Assembly: GCA_028023455.1 (NCBI GenBank)
Contig: JAQFVV010000001.1
Span: forward strand, 11,532,001-11,596,000
Source of the DNA: Epiperipatus broadwayi
Taxonomy: Eukaryota > Animalia > Onychophora
Direction: 5' to 3'
DNA: 64,000 nt
Every line of letters starts with the position of its first letter. The first letter of the stretch is position 1. The position numbers and the translations under genes are program-made. Below the pieces are notes generated by a model. The model worked only from the letters and a program-made list of their open reading frames with translations, had not been told where the DNA came from and ran no database searches. Positions 6,471 to 29,140 of this stretch are shown piece after piece.

Positions 6471-7194
6471 GTAGTATAAATTGAATTTTCTACCATTTAT
6501 ACAATAATTAAAAAAATGTCAAATGCCAGATGCTAACATGGTAGTAATTTAATTTTAAATTACTGTATTTGGTTTATACAAAATGAAGCAATGGATCTGA
6601 AGTCCAATCCATGCTTCACATCTTCCTATAAACTTGATTAATATTGTAAACCTAAATTAAGTTTATAGTCCAATATCAGCAGAGTTTTACATTACAGCTA
6701 AAATTAATTACGTTATTAAATTTGTATTTGCTTTTAAATATTTCCTTTTAAATAAATTCCATTGTAACATTAAATTGCTGTTAAAAATATTACTTGTGAA
6801 AACCGTTTAGTCAAACATATATATATACATCTAGCGTATATATATATATGAGTTAATGCAAAATTCTGCTGAAATAAAATGCTTATTCTACTATAAAAAA
6901 ATAATAATATATTGTTGTTAAAATTTTGTTAAAATATTTAGTATGATTTGATTTTGAGATAAGCCCGCCAACATTTTCTAAAAGAATGTATAGTTTTAAT
7001 TAGTGAGCCATTCAAGTCTAATTAAAGATGGCCTTCTCTTTCTTTTTTTTTTAAATTAATAGAATTCAAACTTTAAAGAAAGAAAGTTAGAGTAAAAAAG
7101 TTAAAGTTATTTTTAGAAAATGTTACTTTGAAACAAAGGAGCATGGGGGCTTATCAAGATCATACGAACAATAGAAGGTAGCTGACAGAGAGGG

Positions 7195-7204
7195 TATAAA
7201 TAAA
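7195..7204 (+). promoter_or_regulatory. Overlapping TATA box and AATAAA poly(A) signal of LTR A
   Basis: GGGTATAAATAAAAGGG followed ~25 nt later by TCAG initiator-like motifs. Confidence 0.6.
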
Positions 7205-7224
7205 AGGGAGAACAAAAGATTAGG

Positions 7225-7462
7225 CAATCAGAGTTTCTTTTTGGAACAAGTCAATCAGAGTTTCCTTTTGGAACAAGTCAATCAGAGTTTCTTTTTGGAA
7301 CAAGTCAATCAGAGTTTCCTTTTGGAACAAGTCAATCAGAGTTTCCTTTTGGAACAAGTCAATCAGAGTTTCCTTTTTGGAAAAAGATCAGTCATTCAGA
7401 TTTTCCTTTTGGAAAAGATCAGTCATTCAGATTTTCCTTTTGGAAAAGATTATTCATTCAGA
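7225..7462 (+). repeat. 27-bp tandem array (5 copies plus 3 variant units) at the putative R/U5 start of LTR A; second copy at 13404-13641
   Basis: Unit GTCAATCAGAGTTTCCTTTTGGAACAA, followed by GATCAGTCATTCAGATTTTCCTTTTGGAAAA variants. Confidence 0.95.
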
Positions 7463-8812
7463 GTATTCTTGCGGGCTGTCAGATTGCTCCGTGGAGAACT
7501 TTAGAAATTTTGCTGTTGCCTGTTGTGATTTTATTATATGAATTCGATGGAGTCTACCATGCTTGGCTAGGCAAATAAATAACTTTGTCCACCGCCGAGG
7601 GTTCCTCAATACCAGAAAAATGCCGTAGTATTTACTCAATCGTCATCTGAACTCTGTGCCGTGTCTGGAGGACTTTTTGTGAAACCATGCTACCGATTTC
7701 CACTTTCCTTGTCCGGACAAACACATATCATCAGACGGATCAAGCTACGCCCGTCGATGGAACATGACCAAGGAATAAGGACGGTAATCATATCTCTCCT
7801 CATGAACTATTTATTATGCTACCCTTTTTGTCCATACTTTTTATAATTGCTTCCTTGAATATTTATGAAATGTGTGTTTAATGATATTTATAATGTAACT
7901 ATTTTTATTAGACTAGTTAGATATATGTATATGTGATCATCTATCTAGTTATTTAACTTTTTTTCCTTCGCTATTCTTCAATACTCCCATGTGTAAATAT
8001 TTTAATTCTATTGCAGTTAAGTTTATTAGTTAATTGTTCATATAAAAATCCCTTTCCAGTTTTATTCATACTTGTAAAATTTAGTACGAGTAAGTTTCCT
8101 TTTTTTTTGTTTGCCAACTTGATCTCCTCGATAACGCTTCTTTTGTCCGCCATTAGCTTCTTACGTATGTCAGATTTAGCGATATACATCTTAAATCATT
8201 TTAAACTCTGTTTTAGCGCAAAGCAATTCGAAACTGCTTTGCGAAAGATTTTTATTATTGCACCTTATCGAGCAGATTCGAGTTGACAATGTTTAATAAA
8301 GCTGGGAAGGAAAGATTTAGACCGCAAGCATATTAATCTGGTTTTCATTGTCTTATTAGCTATTCATTAATTTCGGGGAATAGCGAAGGCCATTAAATTA
8401 TTAATAATATTTCAAATGTCATTTATTAAAGATATTTATTTAACTAAAAAGCTTGAGTTTGCTAGTTATATTTCAATGCTTTGTTTTACTTTTAAATGAT
8501 CCAGGCACGCCAAACACATATTTCTAAGTATTTTTGCACATTTAACTATTTAGCTCCGTAGGTGGTTCTGTCCATGTCTCCCGTTGATGCTAAGCTCGTG
8601 GCGCGGTAAGAAAATATCTATGCGTGTCTCAGATAGTGTTGTTCGGTTCATGATAGCTTTGAGACTAGACGAATAGGGCAGAGGTCATAGTATTCTTGGT
8701 TTAATATCTCGCATATGGGTGGCCTCGAGGTACTTTTGCCTAGTATTCGAACTGGGTTAAATCAACATACATCATCTGACTGTCACAGTAGATTTTTTTT
8801 TTTTCCGCATTC

Positions 8813-8830
8813 TGGCGTCCATCGTGTGGC
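8813..8830 (+). promoter_or_regulatory. Primer-binding site, tRNA-Lys(CUU)-like
   Basis: TGGCGTCCATCGTGTGGC versus the canonical Lys1,2 PBS TGGCGCCCAACGTGGGGC (15/18). It lies 25 nt downstream of the LTR end. Confidence 0.7.
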
Positions 8831-9912
8831 TATTCGAAATTTTCCACACCCTGTAGGCAGCGTTTATGTTTTAAATAATAATATATATGTAGAATTTTTT
8901 TTGTCCTCGGATTTGTACGCATATATATAGTGATTGTTTTAAATAACACGAATAATTGTTAGTTATACGTGAATTTTTTTGCTTCAAGTTGTCGCAGTGG
9001 GACGAATGTCATTTTTTTTTAAAAAAAAATTTAGTACCCTGAGAAGTTTGTTTTGGTCTAATATATTTATACAAAAAAATATATATAATTTTTTCTGAGT
9101 CTTGTTTCCTAATGTGAGCAAATGTCATTTTTTAAAATTAATTGAAAAGTTAAAGGTGTCATAAAGTAAAAATTTTTTTTTCCGAGTTTAGTATATATAT
9201 GAAATGAATGTTTTACATTTAGAAAAGTTAACACTCCGTTAGTTTTTTTTTATAGTGAATATATATATTAATGAGAATAAATATCAGAGTTATAGCAAGA
9301 TTTTTTTTTCCGAATGAATAGTTTTGTCGATGGCCAGTTGCCATATTGTTGTTTATCGTATAAAGTATATACCTTCGATGAGGCGGAAGTGTTAACTATA
9401 TACCCACCCGCCCTCCCTTAAAATAGCTAGTAATGCTTAAATCTGAGAAGTTTTAATATAATAATGTTTTTTCGAAATATAACATTTTAGTTAAAAGTAC
9501 AAATAGATAATAGAATTATGTTTCCGTTGTACAAATTTTTGTAAAGATTAAAATTGATAACATTCTTTCGTTAATAGAAATTTTTTATAAGATCAAAAAG
9601 TTTGATAAGTTCAAACTATATTGTTTCACTTTCTCTGCGTTAGTTTCCTTAATTAAATCAGTAATTTTAATCATGCAGAATTTTTTTTTCACTTTTAAAT
9701 ATTTTGAAATTACGTTCCGTGCAAACAATAGATATAAAATAAGTTTTGTTTCAATAATAACAAACTTAATTGTCAACTTTATGAAAAGTAAATGCGTATG
9801 TTCGGTAATAAATATATATATTAAAGATATATTTTTGTATAACATATGTCAGCCACCCTTTAGTTAAGATTTTTTTCTCCATTTCGGATTATGCTATTGA
9901 ATCATTTATTGA

Positions 9913-10021
9913 GTAACCGTTAGGTGAAGACCCTTTGGGTAACCGTTAGGTGAAGCCCTTGTTTTTTAGTAACCATGTTTGGTGAAGACCCTTAGAGTAA
10001 CTGTTTAGGCGAAGACCCCTT
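9913..10021 (+). repeat. Four ~27-bp tandem units in the element A leader
   Basis: GTAACCGTTAGGTGAAGACCCT-like unit, four copies. Confidence 0.85.
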
Positions 10022-11004
10022 ACATTGTAGAGTTCTCGATTGCTGAGTAGCCTGAAATAATAGGTCTATGTCCGCAATCATTGCTTCCTTGTCATAGTTG
10101 CGACCAGCGTTTACTAGCCTGAAATAATAGGAGTATGTGGTTTGCAAGTTGACATCTTTCTAATAAATTCATGTACATGATAATAAAAGAAATATTTGTA
10201 TAGGTATATCTGTTTGTATATTTATATGTAGTCATATATATGCTTATTTAATGATGTACATATTCATATATATGGATGCATATGGTATACACTTCGTTAT
10301 AGTTCGGTAAAACCCGTTTTTATATAAATGTTTTTTAAACAGTTTTTGATTTCAATGCGTGATTCTGTAAAATTGCGTGATAATTGTTAATCTATTTCGG
10401 GTGTGACCAAAATGGTAGTTGGTTTCGATCCCAGGTTCATAATTCGGAGTGGCGGTTATCATGGGATTTTACTTTTATTTTAATTGTTTTTTGTATTAAT
10501 ATTTTGTTTTGTTAATCGTACTTTAGGCTGGTTAAATTTTTTTTCTGTCTTGACCAAAACGGTAGCGTGGTTTCGAACCCAGGTCAGACATGTTACCTTA
10601 CTTAGTTGTTATACGTCTTAGACTTACTTAATATTGTCATTTAAAATACCATTTACTTATTCATGCAGAGATTTTTTTGAAAGTGAAGTGAAAATCAAAA
10701 TAAATTGTAATCGCATTAAACTTTATAAACCTTACCAATGTGTGCTTGGATCATTATCCATTAATATGTATATTTGATATGGCCATTGTCTTGTCGACTG
10801 GCACCCTTCTCAAATAAATTTGTCGGCAAGTGCAATCTCTCATATCGGATATCAAATAAACCAAACTATAGTAGATGATCAAAATAACAATGTATGCATA
10901 GTGAGCCAAAATAATTTTTAAACATGACTTACGTATATTTTGCTCACATATTTTTTATATATATATACTTGTATTAATGTAAATGCATTTTTTAGTTGTT
11001 TCAG

Positions 11005-11029
11005 GTGTCAGAGAAAGCCAGGTCAAGCT
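11005..11029 (+). other. Candidate 25-nt microexon in the element A leader
   Basis: TTTTTTAGTTGTTTCAG acceptor, GTGTCAGAGAAAGCCAGGTCAAGCT, then a GTAAGT donor. A homologous microexon is present in element B. Confidence 0.6.
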
Positions 11030-11424
11030 GTAAGTGTGTTATTTTAATTATATTGGGACAAAATAGCAGTGATATTTTAATGAAATATAACAATAAATAA
11101 AGTGAGGAGACTAATATGTAGTATAAATATTAAAGACAGACACAGCAGGATTTTAAATATATATATTTTGATGTACAAACAGATACATATAGGCATAGGG
11201 TTAAGATAGGACCTCGTAAGGTAGGCAAAGTTAAATTTCTGAAAACATATAAATAAAACACATAGTTGGAACTTAGAATAGTGACTTATTTTAGAAAGAA
11301 ATAATTTTTTTTTGTGTTAATAACTAGTATAAAAATATACTTATCCAGATTGTTTAGTAAAAGACGAACACATTTTACAAACAAAGTGAATGTTATATAA
11401 CAAAATAGCCAATATTAGGCAAAA

Positions 11425-12519
11425 ATGGACCAACCGAAGAAAGTTGCAGATTATGACAGCGATGAGGAGGTAATGCTCAACCTTCCAAATACAGCAACAT
11501 CGACTCATAGTGACCAAGAAAACAATGTGAAAGATCTCATCACAGAAATGAGACAAGAAAACAAAATGATGATGAACATGTTAAAACAATTCATGAATAT
11601 GACATCACAAAGACTGGACCGTTTGGAGGAAAACATGGCGCTCCACCAACATACTATTGTAACAAAAGTATTGCCAGACGAGGATACTCACTTTAAATGG
11701 CAACCCCAACAGAAGCAAGATGATACACAACTTAAATCATTGATAGATAATGAATTAGGAAAGGATATGCATGCCTTGGACGTGTCAGTCAAGCATCAAA
11801 GACAGGAGGGAGAAGAAAATGGACAGGTGAATGTGGATAAAGAGGAAATGAACATTCATCAACAGATGAATCCAATCCAGGCGCAACAAGGCAACCAAAT
11901 CCTTACGCCAATAATAATTAATCCGGTAACATCTCCTGTGGCAAAATTCGTACATATACAATGTTTTAGAGGGGAACCAGGGGGAAACCCTAGACACCAC
12001 CTAGACAGTCTCAAAATGTTTTTTTAATTTCAGAATATGACAGAACAAGAAAAAGTGGCGATCTCCAGTCATCATTTAAAAGAATCTGCCAGAGACTGGT
12101 GGAACACTCTGTCTATACAACCACAAACATTTATGGAATATGAGAATGCAATGTTGTCAATGTATTGGAGTGCAGAGCGGCAGGAAGGTTTGATATATTC
12201 CATAATGCCTGAAAGATACCCAGCTAACCATCAAGAGACTTATGCTCAGTTTTTTGTTAGGCAGGTAAATCGAATTAAAGCCCTAAGTGCATTCAATTAT
12301 CCAGAAATGCAGATAGTAAGGATGATTAGGCACAACATGCCACCCTGGATAAGGAAAATATTAATAGGCACTCAAATGCAAGATATTCAAGGCACGATTC
12401 GGATACTAACTGACATTGACTATGGAAACTTAGAAGAAAACCAAAATGATAGGGTCATGAACCCGTCCAAAAGTACAAGGCAGTATATACCACTGGATCC
12501 TGGGAAATATAGACATTAA
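11425..12519 (+). pseudogene. gag: Gypsy gag of element A with one in-frame premature stop (12025-12027)
   Basis: Track ORFs 11425-12027 and 12037-12519 are in the same frame. Retrotransposon-gag capsid motifs FRGEPGGNPRHHL..., VAISSHHLKESARDWW, YWSAERQEG align with the element B gag. Confidence 0.88.
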
Positions 12520-12764
12520 AATAGATACATAACTTGTTAGATTAAAACAACACGGACTCGTTTTAAGATATAGCAGATTGAATTATGGATAAACTGTTAG
12601 TTATTTAGTAAAAGAAAGAAAAACTGTTAGTCAGTAACAAGTTAAATTTTACACCAAATAAAGAGTAGGCTTGAACTCACCTGGCACAAATTCTTACCTC
12701 TGACCTGAAGCAACAGCATTTTTTTTTTTAAACATTTTTTTTTTGCTCACTAACTATTGGGAAA

Positions 12765-14961
12765 TGAAGCAATGGATCTGAAGTCCAATCCATGCTTCAC
12801 ATCTTCCTATAAACTTGATTAATATTGTAAACCTAAATTAAGTTTATAGTCCAATATCAGCAGGGTTTTGCATTACAGCTAAAATTAATTACGTTATTAA
12901 ATTTGTATTTGCTTTTAAATATTTCCTTTTAAATAAATTCCATTGTAACATTAAACTGCTGTTAAAAATATTACTTGTGAAAACCGTTTAGTCAAACATA
13001 TATATATACATCTAGCGTATATATATATGAGTTAATGCAAAATTCTGCTGAAATAAAATGCTTATTCTACTATAAAAAAATAATAATATATTGTTGTTAA
13101 AATTTTGTTAAAATATTTAGTATGATTTGATTTTGAGATAAGCCCACCAACATTTTCTAAAAGAATGTATAGTTTTAATTAGTGAGCCATTCAAGTCTAA
13201 TTAAAGATGGCCTTCTCTTTCTTTTTTTTTTAAATTAATAGAATTCAAACTTTAAAGAAAGAAAGTTAGAGTAAAAAAGTTAAAGTTATTTTTAGAAAAT
13301 GTTACTTTGAAACAAAGGAGCATGGGGGCTTATCAAGATCATACGAACAATAGAAGGTAGCTGACAGAGAGGGTATAAATAAAAGGGAGAACAAAAGATT
13401 AGGCAATCAGAGTTTCTTTTTGGAACAAGTCAATCAGAGTTTCCTTTTGGAACAAGTCAATCAGAGTTTCTTTTTGGAACAAGTCAATCAGAGTTTCCTT
13501 TTGGAACAAGTCAATCAGAGTTTCCTTTTGGAACAAGTCAATCAGAGTTTCCTTTTTGGAAAAAGATCAGTCATTCAGATTTTCCTTTTGGAAAAGATCA
13601 GTCATTCAGATTTTCCTTTTGGAAAAGATTATTCATTCAGAGTATTCTTGCGGGCTGTCAGATTGCTCCGTGGAGAACTTTAGAAATTTTGCTGTTGCCT
13701 GTTGTGATTTTATTATATGAATTCGATGGAGTCTACCATGCTTGGCTAGGCAAATAAATAACTTTGTCTACCGCCGAGGGTTCCTCAATACCAGAAAAAT
13801 GCCGTAGTATTTACTCAATCGTCATCTGAACTCTGTGCCGTGTCTGGAGGACTTTTTGTGAAACCATGCTACCGATTTCCACTTTCCTTGTCCGGACAAA
13901 CACATCTCATCAGACGGATCAAGCTAGTCGATGGAACATGACCAAGGAATAAGGACGGTAATCATATCTCTCCTCATGAACTATTTATTATACTACCCTT
14001 TTTGTCCATACTTTTTATAATTGCTTCCTTGAATATTTATGAAATGTGTGTTTAATGATATTTATAATGTAACTATTTTTATTAGACTAGTTAGATATAT
14101 GTATATGTGATCATCTATCTAGATATTTAACCCTTTTTCCTTCGCTATTCTTCAATACTCCCATGTGTAAATATTTTAATTCTATTGCGGTTAAGTTTAT
14201 TAGTTAATTGTTCATATAAAAATCCCTTTCCAGTTTTATTCATACTTGTAAAATTTAGTACGAGTAAGTTTCCTTTTTTTTTGTTTGCCAACTTGATCTC
14301 CTCGATAACGCTTCTTTTGTCCGCCATTAGCTTCTTACGTATGTCAGATTTAGCGATATACATCTTAAATCATTTTAAACTCTGTTTTAGCGCAAAGCAA
14401 TTCGAAACTGCTTTGCGAAAGATTTTTATTATTGCACCTTATCGAGCAGATTCGAGTTGACAATGTTTAATAAAGCTGGGAAGGAAAGATTTAGACCGCA
14501 AGCATATTAATCTGGTTTTCATTGTCTCATTAGCTATTCATTAATTTCGGGGAATAGCGAAGGCCATTAAATTATTAATAATATTTCAAATGTCATTTAT
14601 TAAAGATATTTATTTAACTAAAAAGCTTGAGTTTGCTAGTTATATTTCAATGCTTTGTTTTACTTTTAAATGATCCAGGCACGCCAAACACATATTTCTA
14701 AGTATTTTTGCACATTTAACTATTTAGCTCCGTAGGTGGTTCTGTCCATGTCTCCCGTTGATGCTAAGCTCATGGCGCGGTAAGAAAATATCTATGCGTG
14801 TCTCAGATAGTGTTGTTCGGTTCATGATAGCTTCGAGACTAGACGAATAGGGCAGAGGTCATAGTATTCTTGGTTTAATATCTCGCATATGGGTGGCCTC
14901 GAGGTACTTTTGCCTAGTATTCGAACTGGGTTAAATCAACATACATCATCTGACTGTCACA
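12765..14961 (+). repeat. 3' LTR of element A (2197 bp)
   Basis: Near-identical to 6584-8787 (one TA unit and a 5-bp segment missing). Preceded only by a short GGGAAA purine run. Confidence 0.95.
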
Positions 14962-16286
14962 AAAAACATACAAATTTTTTAGAACTATATTAAATTGTAA
15001 TACTAAATTATCATTTTGTTCATATTTGTAATTAAATTGCGAAACATTTCTCACATCTCTGATACGAAATTTTTTTTTCTTTCTTTTTTTGCAACTTAAA
15101 TTCACAAACATAGCTATTGATTGATTAACTCTGCTGTTGTTCTAATTAAACAGATAAATAAATGGAATACGTAAATTTCTAATTTGAATAAAGCACCTAC
15201 ATAATCATCTCACTGTTTAAATACAACATGAGACTTAATCAGTCTATGAGAACTATGATTCTGGTGAACCTCACTGAAAGTGCAAGTACACTCAGCCATT
15301 TTTAAATTGCAAAGGGGGGGGGTACATATCATGTCGCAGACTTGAAAAAGTATTACAGTCTAACTATATTTAATTATTTTAATATTACGATGTTATAATA
15401 ACAATAAAAAATATATAGACAATAGAGTTAATGCAAATAAATAGTTATTGGCAGAGATTATTTCTATTGTCTAGCCAGAAAGCTTACTGATATAATCACT
15501 TGATCCAGATGATCTATGCTATGCTATAGAATGATTTTAGTATTTTTCACTATATCTAAACTAAAAATGCAGAATTAAATGACATTTTATTACTTTATTA
15601 TTTATGAAGGTAGTGGCTCCATGAAAAATTAACTTCTATCTTTTTTAGCTGGTTTTTTTTTTCACTAGTTTTTCTCTTGAATCTTTTGTCTGATCAGATT
15701 CAAAGTTTCAGTTTATCATCATTGAAGAATTACTTTCTACTATTATTTGTGTTTGGTCTTGGTAGTAATTTGGATTTTTTTTAGAAAACAACATGAATCT
15801 AAACTTGCTATTCATTGAATACTGTCTTTAATTAAAAAGACTTTTGTTCTTATGTCTATTGATTTATAAACATTATTATTTTGATTGACCATACAATTTT
15901 AACTCTCCAGATTAATATCTTTATTTGCAGATTTATACTTTCTCCCAGAACCTCTCTATATAACTAATCAATAAACAAACTTAGCAAAATTCAATATCTT
16001 AAGTGGATTTAAAAAAAAACATCCAGAAATAAATCTACAAGAATATGAAAATGAGTAAAATTTTAGAAAATATATGCAAAGCCTAATCCAGTAAAATGCT
16101 TTAAACTTATAATTTACTGATAAAAAAAATTAATTTTCCATAAATGCTTTATATTATTTTGGACTTAAGCAGTTACTGAAAGTTTTTGTTATGTTTTAAA
16201 AATAAGTTCTAAATAATATAGATAGATAATAGAAATGTTGCAAAATCATGTTTACATTAAATATGAACTTTAGAAAACTATTGTGT

Positions 16287-17137
16287 TAGTAGAGCCATCC
16301 AGTGCAAATAGTAATCAGTGGATGCTAGAAAATTTGTGTATAAAATTCCTATCTACTACCTACTCATCCAATATCCCCAAACTAGTTTCTAGTTTGTGGC
16401 TTTCAGAGGTGAGGAGCCTTTGATCTGAGAGCATTGCACCTAGAACTTAGGATCTAATGCAACCCTTCAGCAGCCACACTTTACTTATTTAGTTTACTGT
16501 AAAGTTACGAGTTCCAGATGAAAACATAACAATGTTTTCAATTCAAGCTAATTCACTTTTTTTGTCATACAGATCTGAACCCAGTTCAGTATCTATACAT
16601 TTTGATATCTTAGTTGTTTTAATAACCACAATCATCATTATCCTGTGGGCATGAATGGTAGAAAATCATTAAAACATAACATGATCACCATTTCCTGTGC
16701 TTACACAAACTGTTAAAACAGTGTAACTCTTCAGACAATAGTGTTACCCAGTGCAAACCATAGTAATCAATGGAAGCTAAAATCTATCTAGTGCCTACTC
16801 ATCCAGTATCCACGGACTAGTTTCTAGCTTGTGACTTTCATCAGTGAAGAGCCTTGGTTCTGAGAACACAACCCTCCAGCAGCCATCTTTTATCATTAGA
16901 TCTTAAGATCTAGGTGCAGTGCTCTCAGATCCAGGCTCTTCACTGTTGAATGTCATAAGCTAGAAACTAGTCTGAGGATATTGGATGAGTAGGTACTATA
17001 TAAGGATTTTACATACAAACCTTCTAGCGTTCATTGATTTCCATGGCTTGCACTGGGCAGTACTACTGTCTGGAGAGTTTGCTACTATTTTAATAGTTTG
17101 TGTAAGCATAGGAAATGGTGGTCAGGTGATGTTTTAG
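16287..17137. mobile_element. Family R1 locus: two tandem minus-strand units plus an inverted plus-strand unit, each with a hammerhead motif
   Basis: Hammerhead motifs at ~16403 (-), 16838-16844 (-) and 16943 (+); unit spacing 435 nt. The inversion junction AGCCATCTTTTATCATTAGATC resembles the one at ~53770. Confidence 0.8.
16810..16851 (-). ncRNA. Minimal type-I hammerhead ribozyme motif (core intact, stem I decayed)
   Basis: Minus strand CTCTTCA-CTGATGA-AAGTCACAAGCTA-GAAA-CTA-GTC: CUGAUGA and GAAA boxes, palindromic ACTAGT stem III, GUC cleavage triplet. Confidence 0.6.
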
Positions 17138-17264
17138 TATAGTAAATTACTTAAGATTTTTAGAACTATATTAATTGAAATTTCCATTCATATTCATAAT
17201 AATTATCATTTCTAATATGTTAATATAATTCTGTTTATTTTTTAAAAAACATTAAGGTTATTAG

Positions 17265-17820
17265 TGTTTTCCTGAAAATTTATGATGATGGTGTTCTAGT
17301 TGTATTTTTATATTGGACTATTTCCATCATCTAATATGTGTATGGAATGTCTTTAGAAAAATTTAACTTTATTTAAATATTCCAAATACATTCAACTGTT
17401 ATCACATGATCACTATCTCTACTGTATGCAGAGTTTTGCTTTGTTTTGAATTGTTTAATAACATTCAACTGTTAGTAATAGCACATCAAAGAGGCTAATT
17501 AGTAGATAAGTATATGAAATTTCTACTGGTTGTTGCCTTTGGCAGGATGGCTCAGTTGGCTAGAGCATTGCCTTAATTCAGTAATCAAGAATCTAGGATC
17601 CAAGTTCGAATCCCATGCTAGTACTGTCACTAGTCAGACCAGCAACACCTGAAAAAGAGAAGGGAATAATACCTATCGAAACATTGTGCATATACTAACC
17701 TGTTTGATGTGCTATTACTAACAGTTGAATGTATTTGGAATATTTAAATAACGTTAAATTTTTCTAAAGACATTCAATATGCATATTAGATGATGGAAAT
17801 AGTCCAATATAAAAATACAT
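17265..17820. mobile_element. Inverted-arm insertion, family R2, with 13-bp TSD and an internal tRNA-derived Pol III promoter
   Basis: TTAAGGTTATTAG at 17252-17264 and 17821-17833. Arm ~17300-17480 is inverted against ~17700-17820. A box TGGCTCAGTTGG (17548-17559), B box AGTTCGAATCC (17603-17613). Confidence 0.75.
17402..17460. mobile_element. Tiny R1 insertion nested in R2, with 14-bp TSD
   Basis: ACATTCAACTGTTA at 17388-17401 and 17461-17474 flanks TCACATGATCAC...CTACTGTATGCAGAGTTTTGC, the two characteristic R1 ends. Confidence 0.75.
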
Positions 17821-20674
17821 TTAAGGTTATTAGGTTATTGTAATTATATGTCTGTTTTAGAGATGTAATAGTTGTAATATATTTTACATTGGGCTATATC
17901 TGGGAAAATCATTGTAAAACTTTTTCATAATTTGCTGTCCTTAACTAGGAATTCATTAAGATGAAGTCTTGTTTCCATATGGAGGCATTTATTTCACATC
18001 CTGTGCATGCTATTTATAGAATGGCCAAGGGAAGACTGTTATCCATCTATATATTAAATAAATAGTTTAAGACTGATTAATTCACACAATATACTAATAT
18101 ATAAACTTATTAATCTAGTGTCTCAACACAGCTTTAGAGTTTTGCTTGTTAGCTGAAAAGGCTATGGAAATCATAAATGTGATTTGTAGACTTTTATTGT
18201 TAAGATATCTATTACTATAAAGCTATTTCAAATTGAACTTAAGTTCTATATTTTAGCACTGCTTTAAGTTTATCTTCAGTACTGTTTCTTTTCCTTAGCA
18301 GGACTGTCAGCTGGAAGACATTGTTAATGTCCAATCAGTACAATAGTTGATTTGAATTAAATATTTTTATTTGCTATTGCTTCTTATAAACTTGTTGTAT
18401 AGTTTTTGAAAAACTGTAGCTTTTATACTGGAAAACCTCAAAAAATAGATTATGTGAACATTAGTTTTTTTAAAGTGAAAAAATGTGATGCAAAATTATT
18501 TCTTTTATATAAGTCAGAAATTTCTACATTTAGAAGATCATATGCTTAGAAATCATGTTAGGCAAATTAAATACATCTTCCTCCTGTAAACTTTCTTTTT
18601 ACTCATTACTTCCACTCCACATGTACCAAATCGTTTTAGTAGGATTTATTCAATTTCTTTTCCTAACCTATTTTAATAAAAAACTTAACTAAAAAAAAAT
18701 CTCTTTTATTCCTTCTACTAGTGTATAACTTATGTTTTTTCTCTTAATAATTTTATATTCGTAATATAAATTTTATATTTTTTTTTTTTCATTTCTATAT
18801 GATCATTAATGTCTTGAAAATTCTTTTTCTTCTTTTCTTAGTAATCAAAGTTTCAGAATTTGCATGTGAATAACAATAAACTCAGAATTTGCATATGAAT
18901 AATAATAAATTCCATCTATTATAATCATTCATCCTTTTATTTTTATTATTGTATAACTGAAAACGATTTTAGTCATATTAATTTTTCATAATTATATATA
19001 TTTTTCTTAATCAGTTTACATTCTTTTCTCATCACTTATAACTGTGAATATTTTCTACAAATGTAAATCTTGATTTCTTATATAAATAAATAGAAATACA
19101 GTAAATTATTTGTCTATACATTTTTTTTATATACAGTTTATTATTATTTTATGTATATTGAGATAAATCTTTTCTATCTCAATATCTAAAGTATTTTAAA
19201 ATATTTTATGATTGGCAAAGTACAAGTTAATTTCAGTTCTTATGTTTTTTTTTTTAAATATGCTTGTATTATTTGTTTGTATATATACGCACACATTAAT
19301 AGATTTGTGTTTATTATAGTTGATCAATATTATTTTAATTTGCAGAAAAAAAGGAAAAATAAACTTTGTAACTAAAATTGTTATAAATCTGTTTAAAATT
19401 TATTTTATAGGAACAATACTTATTTTATAAAATTTTAATTATTTCCATTTTATTAATTAAAACCTCTTGAGAAAATTAATTTTCTTTCATTGTCTTGTTT
19501 CTATTTTTAAGATTCTATTATCTGTGAACATATAAATTGATCTAATTAAAAGTGTTTGGTAATTCTATTAAATAAAAATAATTATTGCTTCAGTGAATTA
19601 AGAAAGTTCTAATAAATCTATTGATGATATAATTACTGGCTTATCTAAGTTAAAATTATAATCACTGCCTTTGTTAATTAAAAATTGATGATAAATGAGT
19701 GGGCTAATTAATTTTGGTACAATAAAAAGATCAGCTCAGAATTATAATTCATTCTATATTTCATTCTGCTGTCAATTCTGCATTCTTCTGCACTGATTCT
19801 CCTTTTATTTGTGATTATTACCTTGTCTGCTTAATCCAAAACTTCTATCGGTGGTTATGTTAAAAATTATGAGCAGCTAAAACACTAGGAAATGAACTTT
19901 ATTCTCCGGTATGTAGCCTATAGCCATTAAATGTTTAACATTGTTTGCTAAGTTAGCCAACAACATAACTAACTACTACTTTCAAATATGTTGTTCAAGA
20001 AATGCACATCTCAATATTAAAGAAGCAATTCTAGGACAAACTCTAAAGGAAGCCATGGAAACTATTACCCCCATTTTCACATATATATACAATTCAGCTT
20101 TTCTGAAAATTAATAACCCATTTATCAACTTCTATGGAACTTAAGGTGAACTTTATTATGAACTGTTTTATTGAGACATTACCAGTAAGCCAGTGATATA
20201 TAGGTTAAGTAATTTAATTTTATATTTATACATTTATCTGTTTTATAAACAATTTTTGTTTATTAATGTTATATGTTTTAATCTATGGTGTATTTGATAT
20301 TGATAGTTTTAATTTAATAATAGAAAATAGCATTTAAAATTGTAATTTTATATTTTCTACCCCTCATGAAAAAAGTTTATTACAAAGAAAATCATTTCTG
20401 CGATTGTTATTTACAATCCATATTACTTTTAGAGAAAAATTTACATTAAAAAAAAAGTGTTTTAAAAGATAGATTTTTTTCCCTCATATATGTTATAATT
20501 AATAAATAAAATAATGTCTCTGAATATTTTAAAATCGTTATTATATATGTGTGCTTGATAATGTGCCCATAATTTTACAAGATTGTTAAGCTGTTTAAAT
20601 ATGTTGGCAGTTTTACTTCTTTATTCTGTTTATATCACACACATTTGAAATTAAAGGAATTGATATATGTGTAC

Positions 20675-23545
20675 TGAAGCAGTTGATGTCTAATCACATC
20701 GAACTTCATGCTTCACCAGCTATAGTAACCTCCGTGGGGCCCACAATTCAGATCTCACGTATATGTCTGCCTTTTTCACACATTGCATGCACAATAATTA
20801 AAAGAAAAGCTATAAAAATATTTAGTAAAGGTAAAACAATAGTGTGTGTGATGCATATATATATGAATGAAGCAATGATTTAATAATATTTATTGCTGAA
20901 AATTATATTATTTTTATATGTATATTTTAATTGTATTTGGAATTAAAAAGATTTGACATATTTTACAATAGTTGCTAAGCAGAAATAATCTATTCTCTTT
21001 ATATAAGATTATTTCTTGCAAATTAAAAGTCAAAATTTTAATTAAAGCTATAATGAATCCTTTTGTTAATTTTTAGTAAATCTATAAAAAATCTGAAATA
21101 GCTTAAAAGGTATTTCGAACCTTATCTTTAAAATTTTTTTTTTTACTAATTAAATATTTTACTAATTAGAATTAAGATTACAGGGATAGTTGTGGACAAG
21201 TGAAATCGCATTCTTGGGGGGATTACAAATATATATAAAAGAGGCCATAGAATAAAAGAAGTCAGTTAGTAAATTCTTTCAGAACGTTAGATTCAGTAAG
21301 TAAATTTTCAGAGAGAAGTGATTCAAGAAATGATTCAAGATCTTTAAATTTTAAGAAGTTAACACAAGTTTGGCGCTATGAACTTTGAGTAGAGGGAATC
21401 CAGCACCTTTCTCTTCTGTACTTCCCAGAGATTGTCTGCCTTCTGCCACTGCGATGCTCTGTTCATCGGACCAAGCTACTAGAAGACTACCTGAGTGCCG
21501 TCCTTGACTGCGCCTGCTATGTTGTGCTTTCCTGAGGTAACCTTACTTAATGCAGAGCTGCTTTAAATTTGTATAATATGTAATGAAACTATGACATCCT
21601 TAATGTATTAGTCTATAATTCCTGCTAATTTTGCTCTTGAAATCTTTCTCTGTAATCCCTACTATTTTAGTGTAATTTTAACTTACCTTTCATGCTTAAA
21701 TTCTTGTATATAACTTTGTGTGACTCCATTAGAGATTTTAACTTATTCATTTATGTATGTAAACAATTTATTATATTTAATTAATATGCCAATATTATTC
21801 CATTCAACTTCGCAAGTCTAATAAGGGGTTATTTTATTTGTTTAACGGGAAAAGAAGTAGAGGCTTCATCTAAAATTTATTAGTATTCATTTTAACAGAA
21901 ATTGCTCGCTAGGTTGGTTTTTATATTCAAATCTTTTATTTTCATTTTCTTATCTAAAATATTATTGTGGGTGTATACTGTTACTTTATTGTTTGAATTT
22001 ATTCCTAAATTGTCATTTAAAAGATCGTGAACCTTAATATTGTTATCATCCGGTCTTGCTATTTGTCCGGAGAGTTAGTTCTGATACTAAAAAAACCTCG
22101 ATGGGTATCGAATTTAAAAATAATTTTATTAGGAATATCTGTTATAATTTGTTAATGATTCTTTGTTTAAACATATCATTGCGCAGAGGTCAAACCATTT
22201 TAAGGTGCTAGAATATAATGTATTAATTTTATCACTTAGGTATAACCCTGCTGGCATACCTTTTCTTTCTCTAGTGGTACTTACATATATATGTTTTTTT
22301 ATTGCTTTGACATTGGGGACTTCAGTCCGAAACTCCCTGTCCTACTTTCTCAAAATCATTCGTAATCAGGGGTATACGCTACTCCCTGTGGAATGCGAGT
22401 TTTATGGTGTTTTGATTGTGCTGCGGAATTCCATACAGCTGGCTCCGGGCATTGGAACCCAACCTCTCCATTAGATCTTGTTCATTCCCAAATATGTTAA
22501 AATGGTGAAGTATTTAAACTACCATAAGATCCATATTTCTCTAATGACATGCTAGTATCGTTATTGTTTTATTAAATTGATTTATGCCTGTTTGACTTTT
22601 CATTAGTCACAATGAGGTGTTGGAAAATGATTCATTCATGAAATGCGCCATCGTGCTAATTAGTCAGTACGCTGTTTTTAATCTGATTTCTTTTAAAATA
22701 CTAATTGATTCCCATAGACACAAATCAATATATATTCTCTGTAAAATCTTAATGATTATATGCCTTACCCCTCCCTGACAATGTAACGCATTGTTTGTTT
22801 CTTGTATACTTAATTCTAAAGACACTATTTCCAAACAATGCCTGTCAAACATATGTAATGATTTTAAAATTTGAAATAAATTATTTGAGACCGTATATTT
22901 ATATTTATTTGTCAAAATGATTAATGCTAAATTATCAAGCATCTTTCTGTAATCCGAATCTGTTCCGATCTTGTAGATTGTTTTATGCATCCACAACATT
23001 AAATATTTGTAAATTGGCTTGTTCAACTCAGCACAAGTTATAATTCATTCAGTAAAAATTATATCCATTGAATAATTAACATAAGGGGATTATATAAAAC
23101 AATTCCCGAAATTTTGTAAATATTTAACATTATACCAAGCGTGAAATTTCTTTGTGTAATATATATATATGTGTGTGTGTTCTCCTAATATTTCATTAAA
23201 TTTACATATGTAAATCCTGGTTTCTAAATTATTATTTTCTTTTAATTAATAACTATAATTAACAAAATAACTGTAATAAATGTAATCTCTGGACTACTCT
23301 TATCTCGATCATCGTTATCAGTCTGATCTTATGCTCTACCACTGTGTTTCTGGGCCTGGAGTTAAAGTAATTATGCTGTACCATTAGAATTGTTGTTCAT
23401 AGGATCAGAGACTTGAATAATAGGCAAATAGGTGAGAATTCAGGATTGCTCTAGATCTGTGTATCTCGAGCATGATCGGATTCGAGGTACTTTTGCTTGG
23501 ATTGGATTTTTAGTCTTGTGTGAGCAGACATTTTTGACCTGTACA
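20675..23545 (+). repeat. 5' LTR of element B (2871 bp)
   Basis: Colinear with 29446-32319 throughout, with clearly more substitutions and indels than the A LTR pair. Confidence 0.95.
21234..21267 (+). promoter_or_regulatory. LTR B core promoter: TATA box, AATAAA and TCAGTT initiator
   Basis: TATAAAA 21234-21240, AATAAA 21251-21256, TCAGTT 21262-21267 (28 nt from the TATA box). The 3' LTR copy has AACAAA in place of AATAAA. Confidence 0.65.
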
Positions 23546-24321
23546 GGGTTTTTTTTTTTTCTGGTTTGTACACCCAAATTGTGGGATCTGTTAATCATTG
23601 TACACCCTGAAGAGATCATTGATGATATATATGTATATTTCTTGTCTCCCTGAGTTTGTTTTACATGTATAAAATGTGAAAATCTTGTTTTTAAAAAATT
23701 TTAATATCGATGTATCACAACCATAAGTGCAAATTTTTTTTATATATCTGGTTTTGCAGCTAAAAAAAAATTTTGTTTTCCTGTTTTAAAGCTACAAATG
23801 TAAAAATCTCGTTTTAAAAAAAATGTAATACCCATATGTTACAACCATAAGTGAAAAGTTTTTTTTTTCTGTATCTGGTGTTATAACCATATAAAATGTG
23901 TTTCTTATGTTATATATATATGAAAATGTTTTAAAACCCATGTAGTTCACCCATAAGTTATAAACTTTGAAATTATAACAAGGGGTACTTCATGTTTAGT
24001 GTATTTTCTGTACATTGTATATGTAATAAGAATTAATAATGTGTAGCAAATATTTATTAATATTCACGAGTTGAGTAGCCAGATGTGTTTGGAATTTTTT
24101 TAATTTACTGTTGGCTGGCGCCATAATATAAATGTGCCAACAGGTAATAATAATAAAATAAGGTATCAAAATGAGTTCAAACTAGGATATTAGGGGTTTA
24201 GAGAGAGTTAAATTACTTTCCACTGTTTTGCCATGTTTATTGTAATAAGCAAACATATATATATGATATTGCTGAAACAAATAACTAATCTTTTTTTTTT
24301 TTTTGTAAGAGTCTATTATAG

Positions 24322-24349
24322 GTGCAGAAAAACAATCAAAAGTCAAGCA
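24322..24349 (+). other. Candidate 28-nt microexon in the element B leader
   Basis: Poly-T...CTATTATAG acceptor, GTGCAGAAAAACAATCAAAAGTCAAGCA, then a GTAAGG donor. Homologous to 11005-11029. Confidence 0.6.
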
Positions 24350-24628
24350 GTAAGGCAGTTGAATTTCAATAGATCGTATCCAAACATATTATGATAAACT
24401 ATTTATTTTTTTCGTTTATAAGCAGCAATCAGCAGCAACATAGATAGCAGAAGTAAGACGGCAGAAGTAAGACAATTGAATAGAGGAGGAGAGAGGTGTA
24501 TACCCTGCATAAAATAAGAAAAGAAGAAAAAAAACACAAACCTTATTTCACAAACAATTATAAGTGACAATACTTTAAACAAAAAAAAAAATGGTGAAGA
24601 AAGAACCAATAACCAACCAGTATCCAAA

Positions 24629-26040
24629 ATGTCTAACGCAGTGGAACCAGATAGCCCGGAAATAAATTTTAAAGATGCGGCCAAGTTATTGTATGATTAT
24701 GAACAAAAGAATGAATCATCTAATATCAACCTGAATGGTCAGGATAGTATCTTTCAACTCATACAACAACTGATGAAAGAAAGTAGAGACCAAGAAGAAA
24801 GAACCGCAGAATTTCAGAGAAGGAGTATGGAAATGATGAAGGAGTTAAGAAGAGATATTGATGAATTGAAGGAGTTCAAGAAGAGATATTGATGAATTAA
24901 AAAGACGCTGAAGCAATTAGGATGATGATGAGACACCAAAGTCAATGGAAAGGAACAATGACGAATTGAAAATGACCCAGGGTCAGAAGTCAACCAAGAA
25001 AAAAAAACTCCTGAAGCCAGCCCGGACAGGTCAGCAGAAGTGATTTAGTACAAGAAATGTGAAAAGACGAAGATACTTGGAAGAAAAGATGGCCATACTC
25101 CAACATGAGAATCTAGAAACCGTACAAGAGCTGAAACAAGAAGTGAGTCCGCTCAAAAGAACTATGTAACCAATTATGAAGAACAGAACAAATATAAAAA
25201 TACATTTCCCAAGAGACCCAAAACCCAACCAGGGATTAGATTGTTATAATGACAAAAGGAAAATGAAAGCAGAATCACCAGAATACAAGAATTAAGGGAG
25301 TAGAACCTGCGGCCCACAACCAAGGATCCTCATCCATATCACGCTTCATACAAGCACAGATTTTTAAGGGAATCCTTTAAATACCTTGAAAGTCTGCAGG
25401 AATTGTTCTTTTTCCCAAGCAAGTGATGTTGAACATGTGGCTATAGCTAGCTATTACTTAAAATCTACAGCTAAGGACTGGTGGTGATCGCTGCAGAAGT
25501 AGCTGACCAGTGCCACAAAACCATTGTACTGCAACACTACTGGAGTGAAGAATGCCAGGAGGGTATCCTGCATTCCCTGATGAATGAAAAATATCAGAAC
25601 AATCACCAGCAAATGCAGTCAGTTCTTTCTGTGCCAAGTGGCAAAGTTCAAATCACTAACCGCATTCACATATTCGGACTGCCACCTTATACATCTCATT
25701 TGAAATAATATGCCTGTCAGAATACAGAGAATGATGCTGAACAGTCAACTTTCCACGGTGGATGGCATAACAAAATTCCTGACCTCAATACATTATGGAA
25801 ATCTTGCTCCAGAACCTGAAGTGCCGAGATTCCATGAAGGAAACAACTGTTACGGAAAGAAACTGTCCAAGAGGATCCACTAACTAAGAGAAGAAAAATG
25901 TTGACTTTTGTTAAAGGAGACCATGATGCTGTAAAAACCATACAGACATTAATGAATTCAAATCCAGGGGATCAAGACCAAAGCCAAAATCATGAGGTAG
26001 ATGACAACAGCCTAAGGATGACCATTATTCTAGAGGAAGG
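24629..26040 (+). pseudogene. gag: Gypsy gag of element B, multiple stops and frameshifts
   Basis: Coiled-coil N-terminus with a 30-bp internal duplication (24841-24900). Fragments VAIASYYLKSTAKDWW* and LQHYWSEECQEGILHSLMNEKY align with gag A. Confidence 0.85.
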
Positions 26041-29000
26041 ATGATGCTTCAAACAAAGAAAATCTTAAATGTTAACCCAACAATCGATGTGACAATAGGC
26101 ACCCACACAATCCAGGCACTATTGGACTCAGGAAGACAGGTGTCAATTATTCCCAAGGAGTGGATTATCTCACTGAAAGATAAAACTAGCATTATGCAAT
26201 TTCCAACATGCCCCATTCAATTCACGTTGGCAAATGGAAGGACAATGAAAAGTGAGAACTACCAAATGTGGATGGAAATTAGAGTTAACCAACAAATAGG
26301 TCATGCCTTCCTTATCATGGCTGGATTATTGTATGACATGGTCCTGGGATCCGATTTTCCTATTTAGAACCAGGGTGTTATTGACTTCCAGCAAAAGCAG
26401 TGCAGAATTCACAGTGATCACATCACATTTAAAACTACCCCACAACTGATAGCCAAAAGGACAATCTGTCTAATCCAGCCTATAGACCCAGTGCAAATCA
26501 ACACCAAGATTAATGAATCTGCTATTATGGAACCAAGGAATCGGCAAAGGATGCAGAGAATCCTGGAAGAATTTGCCTCAGTATTCTCCAGTACCCCTGG
26601 TCAAATAAGGGGCTATACTCACCAGATAAGTCAGGGAGGAAACTTATACCCAGGCAAAAACTTATCTGATCCCCTTTCAATATAAGGATGAAGTTGATAA
26701 CGAATCAAACACATGAGGGACTGGTGTATTATTGAAAGAGGCCCATCACCATACAACAATCCTCTAGTCATGGTCAAAAAGAAAAGTGGGGAGCTGCGGC
26801 TATGCCTGGATGCACATTGTCTAAACAGCATGTCTATCTCAGAGAGAGATGTCCCTCCTACCATCCAGGAAATTTTTGTTCAATTAGCTGGAGAAATGAT
26901 ATTTAACACTTTGGACCTTACCACCAGTTATTGGAAAATGAATCTTGACCCCTGTGATCGAAAATACACCACATTACAGTATAATGGGAAAACTCATATG
27001 TTTAAGATGGTCCCATTTAGACTCATTAATAGTGGTGCAGGGCTTATGCTGTGTTTAAAGAAGGTGCTGTCAGAAGAACTACAGCAACAAATGATTTGCT
27101 ATATAGATGACATTGTTATCGCTTCAAGAAACCTGACTGAACATCTACAATGCTTAGAGAAATTTTTCCAAGAATGTACACAAGAAAATATTACAATCAA
27201 CCTTGAAAAAAATAGGTTTATGATCACAGAAATATCTTTTTTGGATCATGTTATCAAAGCACAAGGAATTAAGGTGCATCCTGATAAAATCAAAGCTATT
27301 GAGCACTTTCCAAAACTCATTAACCATAAGCAGGTCCGATCTTTCCTTGGACTGCAATTTCTATCATATAAATTCTATCCAGACTTTGCTAGTGACACTG
27401 CTCATCTTGTTGAACTATTAGAAAGACAGGGGAGTGGACCCATATTCACGATTGAGAGCTCCAATCGATCAAAACAAATATCTTACATGCTGTCATGCTC
27501 CATCATTCCCGACTTTACTTGTCCATTTTACCTGCAAATGGACAGCAGCAAAAGGGGTCTGGGAGCAATTCTATTCCAAATAGACAATGCTGGAGAACAC
27601 CGGATATTATATTTCAGTAGCTAGACACTAAAAGAGGCAGTTCATTACACGACAACTGAACAAGAAACACTTGCCATTGTCTGGGTATGCCAGAAATATA
27701 AGCAATTCTTGCTAGGTTCAGAGGTAATCATCATAACTGATCACAAATGTCTTGAATTTCTAAATAAAAGCTTCCTCACCAATGATCAACTGATCTGATG
27801 GAGCTTGATCCTCCAACAGTTTCAGTACAGCATCATATACTGCCCTGGTCAGGAAAACAATGTGGCTATATTTCTTTGGTTCCCTCCCAATGCCCAAAAC
27901 TTTACAAAACAGATTTTACCGAAAATTATTATGCTCAACCCCATGAGATAACCTTAGAATCAAAATTGAAAAACATAAAGGAATGGCAGAAAAATGAACT
28001 GCAGTACAATCAGATTATAAAAAAAAAATTTAAAATAAAACATCGAGATGATCCCAACACCAAGCAATACCGATAATATAGGCTGAAGGATTCTACAAAT
28101 AAAAACAAGGAGCCAAGATAATCCCTGGAAGATATTGGCCCCCAGTATATTAAGAAGCTATATCATCGGGGCACTACAGACCCTGAAAAACATGAGGCAG
28201 TGAGGTGCCAGTTCTACTGGCCTGGAATGTATTTTCAAATCCTGCAAGTTTTACGGAAATGCTCTATTTGCGTTTAACATAAACTATCGAACAAATCATA
28301 TGCAAGGATCACTAATCCTATCCTTGCATCACATCCAAATGAGTTGTTAGCAATCTATGGCCCTTACCAAAATTTTTGGCAGTTCCAATATTTACTTATC
28401 ACATATGACGTTTTTCCAAATATGTCCGAGCTGACTCTGTCAGGGCAGCAGATTCAAGAGGAACAATATGCATCCATCAAGAATGACAGTTCCCAGTAAG
28501 TGGGAAAGCCCTGCACCATTCTCTCTGATCATGGCTCAGCTTACACCTCTAAGGAGTGAAAGAACTGGGTTGAAAAAACGGGCTGAACCATCAACTTGCA
28601 TCCATCAGAAACCCCCAGTCGAACCTGTGTGAGAGAGTAATGAGGGAGATGAACTATTTTGCACATTCACGTCTACCAATCACAGGGGATGGGTAAACAA
28701 AACAGAAGATTGTGGACTACATTAATAACTGTAAATGAGTACAGGGTTTACCCCAAGAAGGCTCCACCAAGGAAAGCCCTGTCCAAACCTCTTCAAAATA
28801 CCATTGCATATGGAAGAAACCCAGATCAATCCAGAAAGACCAGGAAGCTGCACGACTACAATTAGCATGTATGGCGACAATTCATAAAAGGAGGCGATCT
28901 ATCCGGTGACATCAATTTCAGGAAGGAGAAAAGGTCTGGCTCCAGGCACCCAAGCCCAGCAATACTGGCCGGAAGTAATTTAAGAAGTTCTTCCCATTAT

Positions 29001-29140
29001 ACCATGGGCCATATACCCTTCGGAAGGGATATGAGAATAATGCCTTTGTATTAGAGGATGAACAAGAGATTAAAAGGTCTTACAGTGCGAAGCATTTAAA
29101 ACATTGTGTATCTTCAGATCCCGGAAAATATCATTATTAA
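26041..29140 (+). pseudogene. pol: Gypsy pol (protease-RT-RNase H-integrase), disrupted
   Basis: ALLDSGRQVS protease; PSPYNNPLVMVKKK..LRLCLD, YIDDIVI RT; LQMDSSKRGLGA, TEQETLAIVW, TDHKCL RNase H; FYWPGM..KCSIC, SDHGSAYTS integrase; PLYHGPY module; ends ...CVSSDPGKYHY*. Confidence 0.95.

Follow-up and report, generated by a model that had tools for sequence, protein, structure and literature searches.

Two Ty3/Gypsy elements of Epiperipatus broadwayi share a donor-like LTR site and a leader microexon cassette that point to a possible spliced Gag message

The window analysed here, i.e. the whole stretch of 64,000 nucleotides (contig JAQFVV010000001.1, positions 11,532,001 to 11,596,000), holds two long-LTR retrotransposons termed A and B, all features of which are given on the forward strand. 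Element A possesses a 5′ LTR of 2.2 kb with TG...CA ends (6584-8787), a long leader, gag as read from an internal ATG (11425-12519) and a 3′ LTR (12765-14961), whereby both LTRs are 99% identical (14 mismatches). The 4-bp flanking duplication of A reads AAAA and is of low complexity. The gag frame of A is broken by an in-frame stop (12025-12027) and its ORF ends in the last integrase codons, the element having an internal deletion and pol being absent. Element B possesses a 5′ LTR of 2.9 kb with TG...CA ends (20675-23545), a flanking duplication GTAC, a decayed gag-protease-RT-RNase H-integrase region with many stops and frameshifts (24629-29140) and a 3′ LTR (29446-32319), its LTRs being 86% identical to each other with 41 gap blocks between them. 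Paired LTRs, TG...CA ends and 4-bp target-site duplications, as expected for Ty3/Gypsy elements, were found for both, and the domain order protease, RT, RNase H, integrase was found in B only, A being without pol. For B, the Pfam families of protease, RVT_1 and RT_RNaseH were matched, integrase was located after RNase H via tblastn of two relatives, and the best PDB sequence matches were to an RT/RNase H chain (4ol8) and to Ty3 Gag-Pol. The Ty3_capsid match of Gag (E 0.007) stays under the Pfam cut-off, and 108 Gag relatives were found at 17-30% identity, one of the ten looked-up proteins being named retrotransposon gag domain protein. The nearest named relatives of Gag and Pol are insect proteins, no named reference sequence occurs among the 40 RT relatives, a word-based search with Gag of A gave no match among 626 candidates, and an RT search of viral contigs gave no match either. 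A profile-free search of representative proteins returned distant relatives only, none of 148 starting like the proposed leader. The original prediction regarded A and B as two diverged Gypsy families; the features ascribed to both were found, but the elements turned out to be homologous (gag match in tblastx with E 4e-27), and hence motifs common to both are taken as inherited.

Close to the LTR end, an ATG resides 15 nt before the GT of a donor-like site, as predicted for the 5′ LTRs (8715 in A, 23472 in B), and the same arrangement was identified in the 3′ LTRs (14889 and 32248), where ATG and donor motif are identical to the 5′ LTR in A (14889-14913) and kept in B (32248-32272). The pattern was hence matched in four of four LTRs at the same distance and in none of 100 shuffles; a pattern scan of metagenome contigs gave three matches, none related to A or B. 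A sequence scan delimits the LTR ATG with five codons to the donor as the putative coding part of exon 1 of A (8715-8729), the GAG/GTA donor-like site of A lies at 8727-8739, and in B the corresponding stretch from the ATG over the five codons to the donor-like site spans 23472-23496 with the GT at 23487. The shared 15-nt motif is present where it had been predicted (8725-8739 and 23482-23496), with the correction that LTR similarity extends over about 190 nt, 92 of 197 columns of the LTR-end alignment being invariant. The last ~170 nt of both LTRs are predicted to form one hairpin with compensatory changes (8621-8790 in A, fold z -2.87; 23374-23548 in B, fold z -1.87), whereas for the exon part by itself no folding beyond that of shuffles was seen (z -0.12, -0.44 and -0.78). 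An Rfam search gave one weak, unrelated match. The donor core GAG/GTA (8727-8732) is invariant in the three aligned LTR ends and unpaired in the consensus fold, with its neighbours paired (8733-8742 in A), whereby base-pairing accounts for most of the remaining 15-nt motif and for two of the five codons. Since pairing with compensatory partners involves the codons for Gly and Leu/Phe in the LTR exon, these do not demonstrate coding selection, and according to the fold model the apparent peptide conservation in the LTR exon is partly due to RNA pairing. The LTR ATG itself falls into a part of the hairpin that is folded differently in A and B, and a second ATG further upstream, soon stopped, is also conserved (8620 in A, 23373 in B). 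The donor-like site lacks the usual donor bases at +4 and +5. A short local hairpin burying the donor was rejected, as it came out as the top fold for just a single short window of A (pair probability about 0.27) and not for B. A role of the LTR-exon peptide in myristoylation was likewise discarded, given the Ile at position 2 in B.

Both LTRs are directly followed by a T-tract, and 25 nt downstream a 17-mer starting with TGG is found in A (8813-8829; 8788-8829 with the tract), which is degenerate in B. The 17-mer of A is primer-binding-site-like, presumably resembling tRNA-Lys primer sites, and is located within putative intron 1. A splice from 8729 or 23486 would thus remove the surroundings of the LTR end including the primer-binding region, and the predicted translated mRNA devoid of the primer-binding site holds by position, the splice itself being putative.

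Within the leaders, both predicted microexons were recovered with their GTAAG donors, i.e. 25 nt at 11005-11029 in A and 28 nt at 24322-24349 in B (donor at 24350), whereby of the good acceptors claimed for them that of B did not hold, being poor near the AG and passing a relaxed but not a strict filter. Both microexons are open and show a length difference of exactly 3 nt, and the AG/GTG start and the GTAAG end are in register in both families. Comparison of the two revealed 10 of 11 anchored positions to be identical, and none of 8000 shuffles of leader B reached 9, whereby 1722 of these contained any cassette and this anchored cross-family test was picked after the data were seen; 9 of 723 background cassette pairs, probably repeats, also reach 9-10 matches. 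The microexon-shaped cassette alone is within chance, 0.72 such cassettes being expected for leader A and 0.30 for leader B, and blind local alignment of the leaders did not single out the microexon (score 19.4; mean of the shuffled best scores 21.1). While the bare shape does not exceed chance, the cassette does so in two respects only, namely in its anchored match between the families and in its conservation within a family. The latter was followed in relatives of A, represented by four contig runs of uncertain kind, with variants under 8% share left out. Here, the conserved island of 76 nt (10960-11035), comprising pyrimidine tract, acceptor, microexon and GTAAG donor, holds one of the 31 listed variant places of 10960-11176, a statistic that builds on 52 of 77 variant rows and would vanish if the other 25 all fell into the island. 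Conservation covers pyrimidine tract, exon and donor and ends at donor +6, variation beginning at 11036; one contig is identical over 10960-11036, and in another all seven events, assigned via matching depths, locate after 11035. In other copies of the A family, the microexon is hence nearly invariant, the next bases varying freely. Judging by these sequence comparisons, the cassette is a genuine conserved element.

The link of the microexon into gag, which we infer, is the weakest step. In B, the strong acceptor at 24421-24422 (an alternative AG lies 3 nt further on) was confirmed to lead into the gag frame in phase 1, the 68 codons after it (24421-24628) holding a single stop. The only B acceptors with at least 9 of 16 pyrimidines (24423 and 24426) are in phase 1 of the gag frame, and the 68 codons hold one stop in this frame as compared to six and six in the other frames (shuffle P 0.039). 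This stretch contains a duplication of 14-nt period with two GTAAG (24447-24473), and as a consequence the continuity of the frame may in part be owed to accident in this copy with its 41 gap blocks between the LTRs. The acceptor proposed for A at 11347-11348 was not upheld, being weak (7 of 16 pyrimidines), residing in a variable stretch that is missing from most other copies and has almost no cover in two of the four contig runs, and lying outside the gag frame, into which the junction 11029-11349 does not lead. Among the joints listed for element A in these runs of uncertain kind (15 of 21 and 2 of 2, plus joints with letters between), none lies at the proposed junctions, the loose ends listed being 24 of 554 and 24 of 77. 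A second low-variation island of leader A (11177-11232), with a CAG at 11180-11182 and donors at 11216 and 11221, forms a candidate small exon; open routes via 11183 are, however, available in all frames, whether that of gag or another (1, 1 and 2 in A; 1, 2 and 2 in B), and the acceptors they reach have 5 of 16 pyrimidines. An extended Gag opened by the LTR ATG is modestly favoured in B only, by frame and stop count, and the 11029-11349 route in A is not supported.

Based on the cross-copy and cross-family tests, which support a conserved LTR donor-like site and microexon cassette, a mechanism may be suggested. Here, the predicted hairpin would hold the weak GAG/GTA donor in an unpaired loop, and the LTR exon would be joined to the microexon in phase 0; as far as sequence and fold permit, such a spliced leader with its donor in the hairpin loop is considered likely. 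Next, the microexon would be joined to the gag frame, directly in B (24423) and via a further small exon in A (candidate 11183). By position, the hairpin's 3′ arm, the end of the LTR and the primer-binding region would all be missing from the spliced RNA, which could then be translated but not reverse-transcribed, the unspliced RNA staying the genome. Read-through from the LTR ATG into Gag, yielding an N-terminal extension, would be given somewhat less than even odds. The main reading, i.e. that part of the A and B transcripts is spliced into a primer-site-free Gag message, probably started at the LTR ATG, is assigned a rough probability of 0.4. Its widest form assumes a long-LTR Ty3/Gypsy lineage which makes Gag, hence Gag-Pol, from a multiply spliced RNA with the LTR ATG and one or two coding microexons, the first splice from the donor in the hairpin loop destroying hairpin and primer site and thereby sorting message versus genome, and host microexon regulation gating transposition by tissue; this form is doubtful.

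Alternatively, the leader may be spliced as proposed with LTR ATG and microexon belonging to an upstream ORF or simply to exons of the 5′ UTR and Gag starting at 11425 and 24629, whereby splicing would still shorten the leader of 1-2.6 kb, open the hairpin and drop the primer site. The internal gag ATGs locate to roughly matching positions with a common CCAATA shortly upstream and are found in an AAAATG context, the favoured start context of insects. Together with the lack of a robust in-frame route in A, the 54 and 25 ATGs of the leaders, which are mostly removable by splicing, and length differences just before and after the gag ATG in a diverged A subfamily, this renders a downstream Gag start conceivable, yet the fixed ATG-donor distance of 15 nt, the 3-nt difference in microexon length and the few stops in the B gag frame fit read-through better, and a non-coding or uORF role is regarded as somewhat unlikely.

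Productive splicing may also not occur at all, the LTR motif being kept for an RNA hairpin in priming or packaging, perhaps for U1 binding against premature polyadenylation in the 5′ LTR, and the leader island being a protein- or RNA-binding element with AG and GTAAG borders by chance. Pairing of most of the 15-nt motif with covarying partners, the atypical donor and the chance expectation of 0.3-0.7 cassettes per leader agree with this idea, as does the suppression of the 5′ poly(A) site by U1 at the major donor, described for HIV-1 and foamy viruses (PMC12789967). Conservation in the A relatives that spans pyrimidine tract, exon and donor and stops at donor +6, and the in-register AG/GTG and GTAAG ends of both families, argue against it, and the absence of productive splicing is considered unlikely. 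A leader for another downstream frame, either pol as in foamy viruses, the Pol of which is reported to be made from spliced RNA (PMC7828637), or an ORF of env-like or accessory type that both defective copies have lost, after the example of the peptide-encoding exons upstream of gag that are spliced to env in insect ERVs (PMC12992720), is very improbable, since in B only about 305 nt separate integrase from the 3′ LTR, no ORF common to the LTRs of A and B was found and the strong acceptor 73 nt after the microexon of B lies in the gag frame.

With the spliced Gag message as the preferred reading, known systems offer partial likenesses. ZAM- and Beagle-type insect ERVs (errantiviruses) possess a spliced env mRNA with a peptide exon upstream of gag (PMC12992720), and Springer expresses gag-pol from unspliced RNA with a donor 43 nt downstream of the LTR (10.1101/2025.10.13.681963). 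In errantiviruses the splice partner is env, whereas in A and B the donor lies within the LTR and is followed by an intervening microexon, env is absent and the apparent partner is gag; no errantivirus-type env was found between pol and 3′ LTR, the space being about 305 nt after integrase in B and 245 nt after the ORF in A. In Ty1/Copia elements (Drosophila copia, Arabidopsis EVD, barley BARE1), the supply of Gag is likewise set by splicing, and BARE keeps separate RNA pools for translation and reverse transcription, as proposed for A and B. However, the copia, EVD and BARE1 intron begins at the gag end or within the protease region, where it shortens the polyprotein, the N-terminus not being built by it, and the BARE pools are split by promoter choice and capping rather than by primer-site removal. 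The conserved signals of A and B lie upstream of gag, unlike a copia-type intron at the gag-protease border. In foamy virus and HIV-1, the 5′ major donor serves subgenomic RNAs and U1-dependent control of the 5′ poly(A) site, which resembles the roles suggested for the A/B donor. The donors of foamy viruses and HTLV-1 are located in the R region of the LTR. Foamy env transcripts contain small upstream exons comparable to the A/B microexon, whereas retroviral Gag is made from unspliced RNA (PMC5035971), unlike in the proposal for A and B. The Osvaldo lineage (Osvaldo, Ulysses, Woot) is described with LTRs of 997-2055 bp, mostly 4-bp target duplications and, in Culex members, a tRNA-Lys primer site (PMC3286476); the LTRs of A (2.2 kb) and B (2.9 kb) agree with its length of about 1 kb or more, whereas no primer site abuts the LTR in A or B. 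In a literature search covering few subscription journals, neither a Gag initiated in an LTR exon and continued through a microexon nor splicing in the Osvaldo lineage turned up.

In LTR elements and retroviruses, the unspliced RNA normally serves both for packaging and as the template of Gag translation, and how both fates are balanced is an open question. If true, splicing that brings in the start codon while taking out the primer site would solve this balance directly, ORF-based annotation would miss the true Gag start in such families, multi-kilobase leaders would largely be introns, and every LTR, solo LTRs included, would carry a promoter-ATG-donor unit with the capacity for splicing to exons of the host. 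Should function be confined to the hairpin, what is left is a conserved LTR-end structure. As minor observations, an initiator-like hexamer, absent at that place in A, locates 227 nt before the end of LTR B, and the 3′ LTR of B shows two C-to-T differences at CpG sites, both of which are silent.

With 26-28% GC, the window is eukaryotic DNA carrying two Ty3/Gypsy LTR elements, A and B, both on the plus strand. Element A (LTRs at 6584-8787 and 12765-14961, 14 mismatches between them) has a 2.6 kb leader and gag (11425-12519, interrupted by a stop at 12025) as its sole coding region. Since its gag frame (12440-12519) and the integrase region of B (29117-29131) have identical last five residues, A is, as judged from sequence, an internal deletion derivative in which gag continues in frame into the last part of pol; together with its 99% identical LTRs, this would mean that it moved recently without enzymes of its own. 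Further, shorter deletion derivatives of this family are suggested by a contig from one public run which skips 9307-12705. Element B (LTRs at 20675-23545 and 29446-32319, with 243 mismatches and 41 gap blocks between them) has a 1.1 kb leader followed by decayed gag, protease, RT, RNase H and integrase. The Gags of both elements are homologous (E 4e-27), and named relatives come from insects, whereby 3 of the 10 proteins looked up have an organism name. In their long LTRs and 4-bp duplications, both elements match the Osvaldo lineage as described in the accessible part of PMC3286476; membership is putative. The U3 part of LTR A contains a 27-nt repeat array (7168-7470 and 13347-13649), probably enhancer-like, which is spanned by a 124-codon open frame with no Pfam match.

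Near the LTR 3' end, an ATG with five codons and a 15-nt donor motif was identified in all four LTRs (4 matches vs 0 in 100 shuffles), and the similarity is broader than originally noted, extending over about 190 nt, in which 92 of 197 alignment columns are invariant. The 3' LTR of B has two differences, both silent, which are of little information as both are C-to-T at CpG. Structure prediction folds the LTR ends into a long hairpin (z -2.87 for A, -1.87 for B), and separately computed folds have 20 pairs in common (66 pairs in A, 62 in B). In the consensus structure, which was derived from the same three sequences, two of them from one family, changes on both sides occur at 7 of 50 pairs vs 3.0 in shuffles, with 2 of 500 shuffles reaching 7. 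Because codons 3-4 (8719-8726) pair with 8681-8688 in this fold, including three double changes, and 8733-8742 has 8666-8676 as its partner, base-pairing would account for most of the motif, the Gly and Leu/Phe codons included, and a coding or splicing explanation for this part appears unnecessary. Pairing as modelled leaves the ATG and the six-base GAG|GTA core unexplained; the latter is invariant though unpaired in the predicted fold, and we infer a resemblance to a donor displayed for U1. Splicing there would remove the 3' arm of the hairpin, and the remaining LTR part folds no better than shuffles.

Both microexon cassettes (acceptor, exon and GTAAG donor; 25-nt exon at 11005-11029 in A, 28-nt exon at 24322-24349 in B) are present as had been described. 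Their presence alone is unremarkable, since 0.72 (leader A) and 0.30 (leader B) would be expected by chance at the background rate (24 in 87,924 nt under a relaxed definition), and that of B fails the strict definition. Unanchored alignment of the leaders ranked the cassette below shuffles. Anchored at acceptor and donor, a statistic chosen post hoc, the exons match at 10 of 11 positions; none of 8000 leader B shuffles reaches 9, and 9 of 723 background cassette pairs reach 9-10, these being probably repeat copies. In B, one GTAAG and two additional AG lie within the 17 nt that separate the long T-tract from the acceptor (24290-24321). Other A-family copies, namely contigs from four public runs (two organisms, two studies; not recorded as RNA), lend independent support to the cassette. 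Only one of the 31 listed variant places of 10960-11176 falls inside the 76-nt island of tract, acceptor, exon and donor (nominal P 3e-5, a soft value because it covers the best 40 of 51 substitutions and best 12 of 26 indels, at shares of at least 8%), and variation with indels starts at 11036, i.e., donor +7. Single contigs agree: one shows no difference over 77 nt spanning the island, in another all 7 events fall beyond 11035 (P 0.002), and in a second run this likewise applies to 7 of 7 (P 0.06). The sole listed change within the exon alters one residue and introduces neither stop nor shift. A second low-variation stretch, 11177-11232, with 2 substitutions and no indels among those listed, contains a CAG and two donors.

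Concerning the junction into gag, the only B acceptors with a real pyrimidine tract between microexon and gag, 24423 and 24426, are both in phase 1 of the gag frame, and the 68 codons that follow hold one stop, against 6 in each of the two remaining frames (shuffling P 0.039), which bears out the phase proposed for B. Due to a 14-nt-period duplication with two GTAAG, this stretch may represent an additional small exon, or the continuity of the frame may be partly accidental. For A, the proposed acceptor before 11349 is not supported: 7 of 16 tract positions are pyrimidines, its phase-1 frame differs from that of gag, cover of 11338-11373 in the four runs is patchy (0; <1; 10-14; 175-225) with many loose contig ends around it, and the required length variant is absent from the best 12 of 26 indels. 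Open routes via a small exon, in A through 11183-11220 and on to an AG located 6 nt upstream of the gag start codon and, resembling it, via 24426-24452 and then 24621 in B, are no evidence, as they are available in all three frames and their terminal acceptors have 5 of 16 pyrimidines.

Taken together, the original prediction of an N-terminally extended Gag rests on largely real observations; its interpretation has partial support, the step from microexon into gag being putative, and a conserved predicted hairpin and within-family conservation of the microexon are added here. All splice steps are proposals. Most likely, with a probability of roughly 0.7 for the splice, a weak donor displayed by the hairpin would join the LTR exon to the microexon, and this to the gag region, in part of the transcripts, yielding a short-leader RNA devoid of LTR end and primer region, whereas unspliced RNA would stay the genome. 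Given the fixed ATG distance, the 3-nt difference in exon length and the open frame in B, read-through from the LTR ATG into Gag is the single likeliest form, though a tentative one. The gag ATGs of A and B, with AAAATG context and a common hexamer shortly upstream, are consistent with use as internal starts, and a spliced leader serving as upstream ORF or UTR ranks second, being rather unlikely. Slightly less probable still is that no splicing occurs, a reading which the base-pairing suits. That LTR exon and microexon lead to another target frame is very improbable.

In the literature searched there is no report of a Gag that begins in an LTR exon and continues through a microexon. As far as the accessible parts of the sources go, insect ERVs join env to a peptide exon that precedes gag, to an AU dinucleotide or to part of gag by splicing (PMC12992720); Springer has its donor 43 nt beyond the LTR and makes Gag/Pol from unspliced RNA (10.1101/2025.10.13.681963); in copia, EVD and BARE1 splicing takes place at the gag end (10.1101/2023.05.27.542554; PMC5580714; PMC3735527); foamy Pol comes from spliced RNA (PMC7828637); and HIV-1 and foamy viruses keep their 5' poly(A) site in check through U1 at the major donor (PMC12789967). 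The portions available of PMC2911113 and PMC3391268 hold nothing further on splicing.

Directly after both 5' LTRs lies a G with a 12-T tract (8788-8829 and 23546-23590), and a tRNA-type primer site adjoining the 5' LTR is absent in A and in B. The first 14 nt past the LTR of A could base-pair with the hairpin foot (8608-8621), with 13 of the 14 positions matched if G-U is counted, which recalls chromovirus hairpin self-priming as outlined in the accessible part of PMC3601003; this pairing is only fourth by energy, and B has no such match. Elsewhere, a 281-codon open frame on the minus strand (61475-62320) has no Pfam match above noise, and a single open frame at 33511-34071, in which Pfam recognizes the N-terminal domain of translation initiation factor 3 (E 3.8e-7), is probably host mitochondrial IF3. 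Small dispersed repeats with inverted arms (16288-17134, 43239-43807, 51077-51292, 53235-54366 and 57317-57564) are probably non-autonomous DNA transposons.
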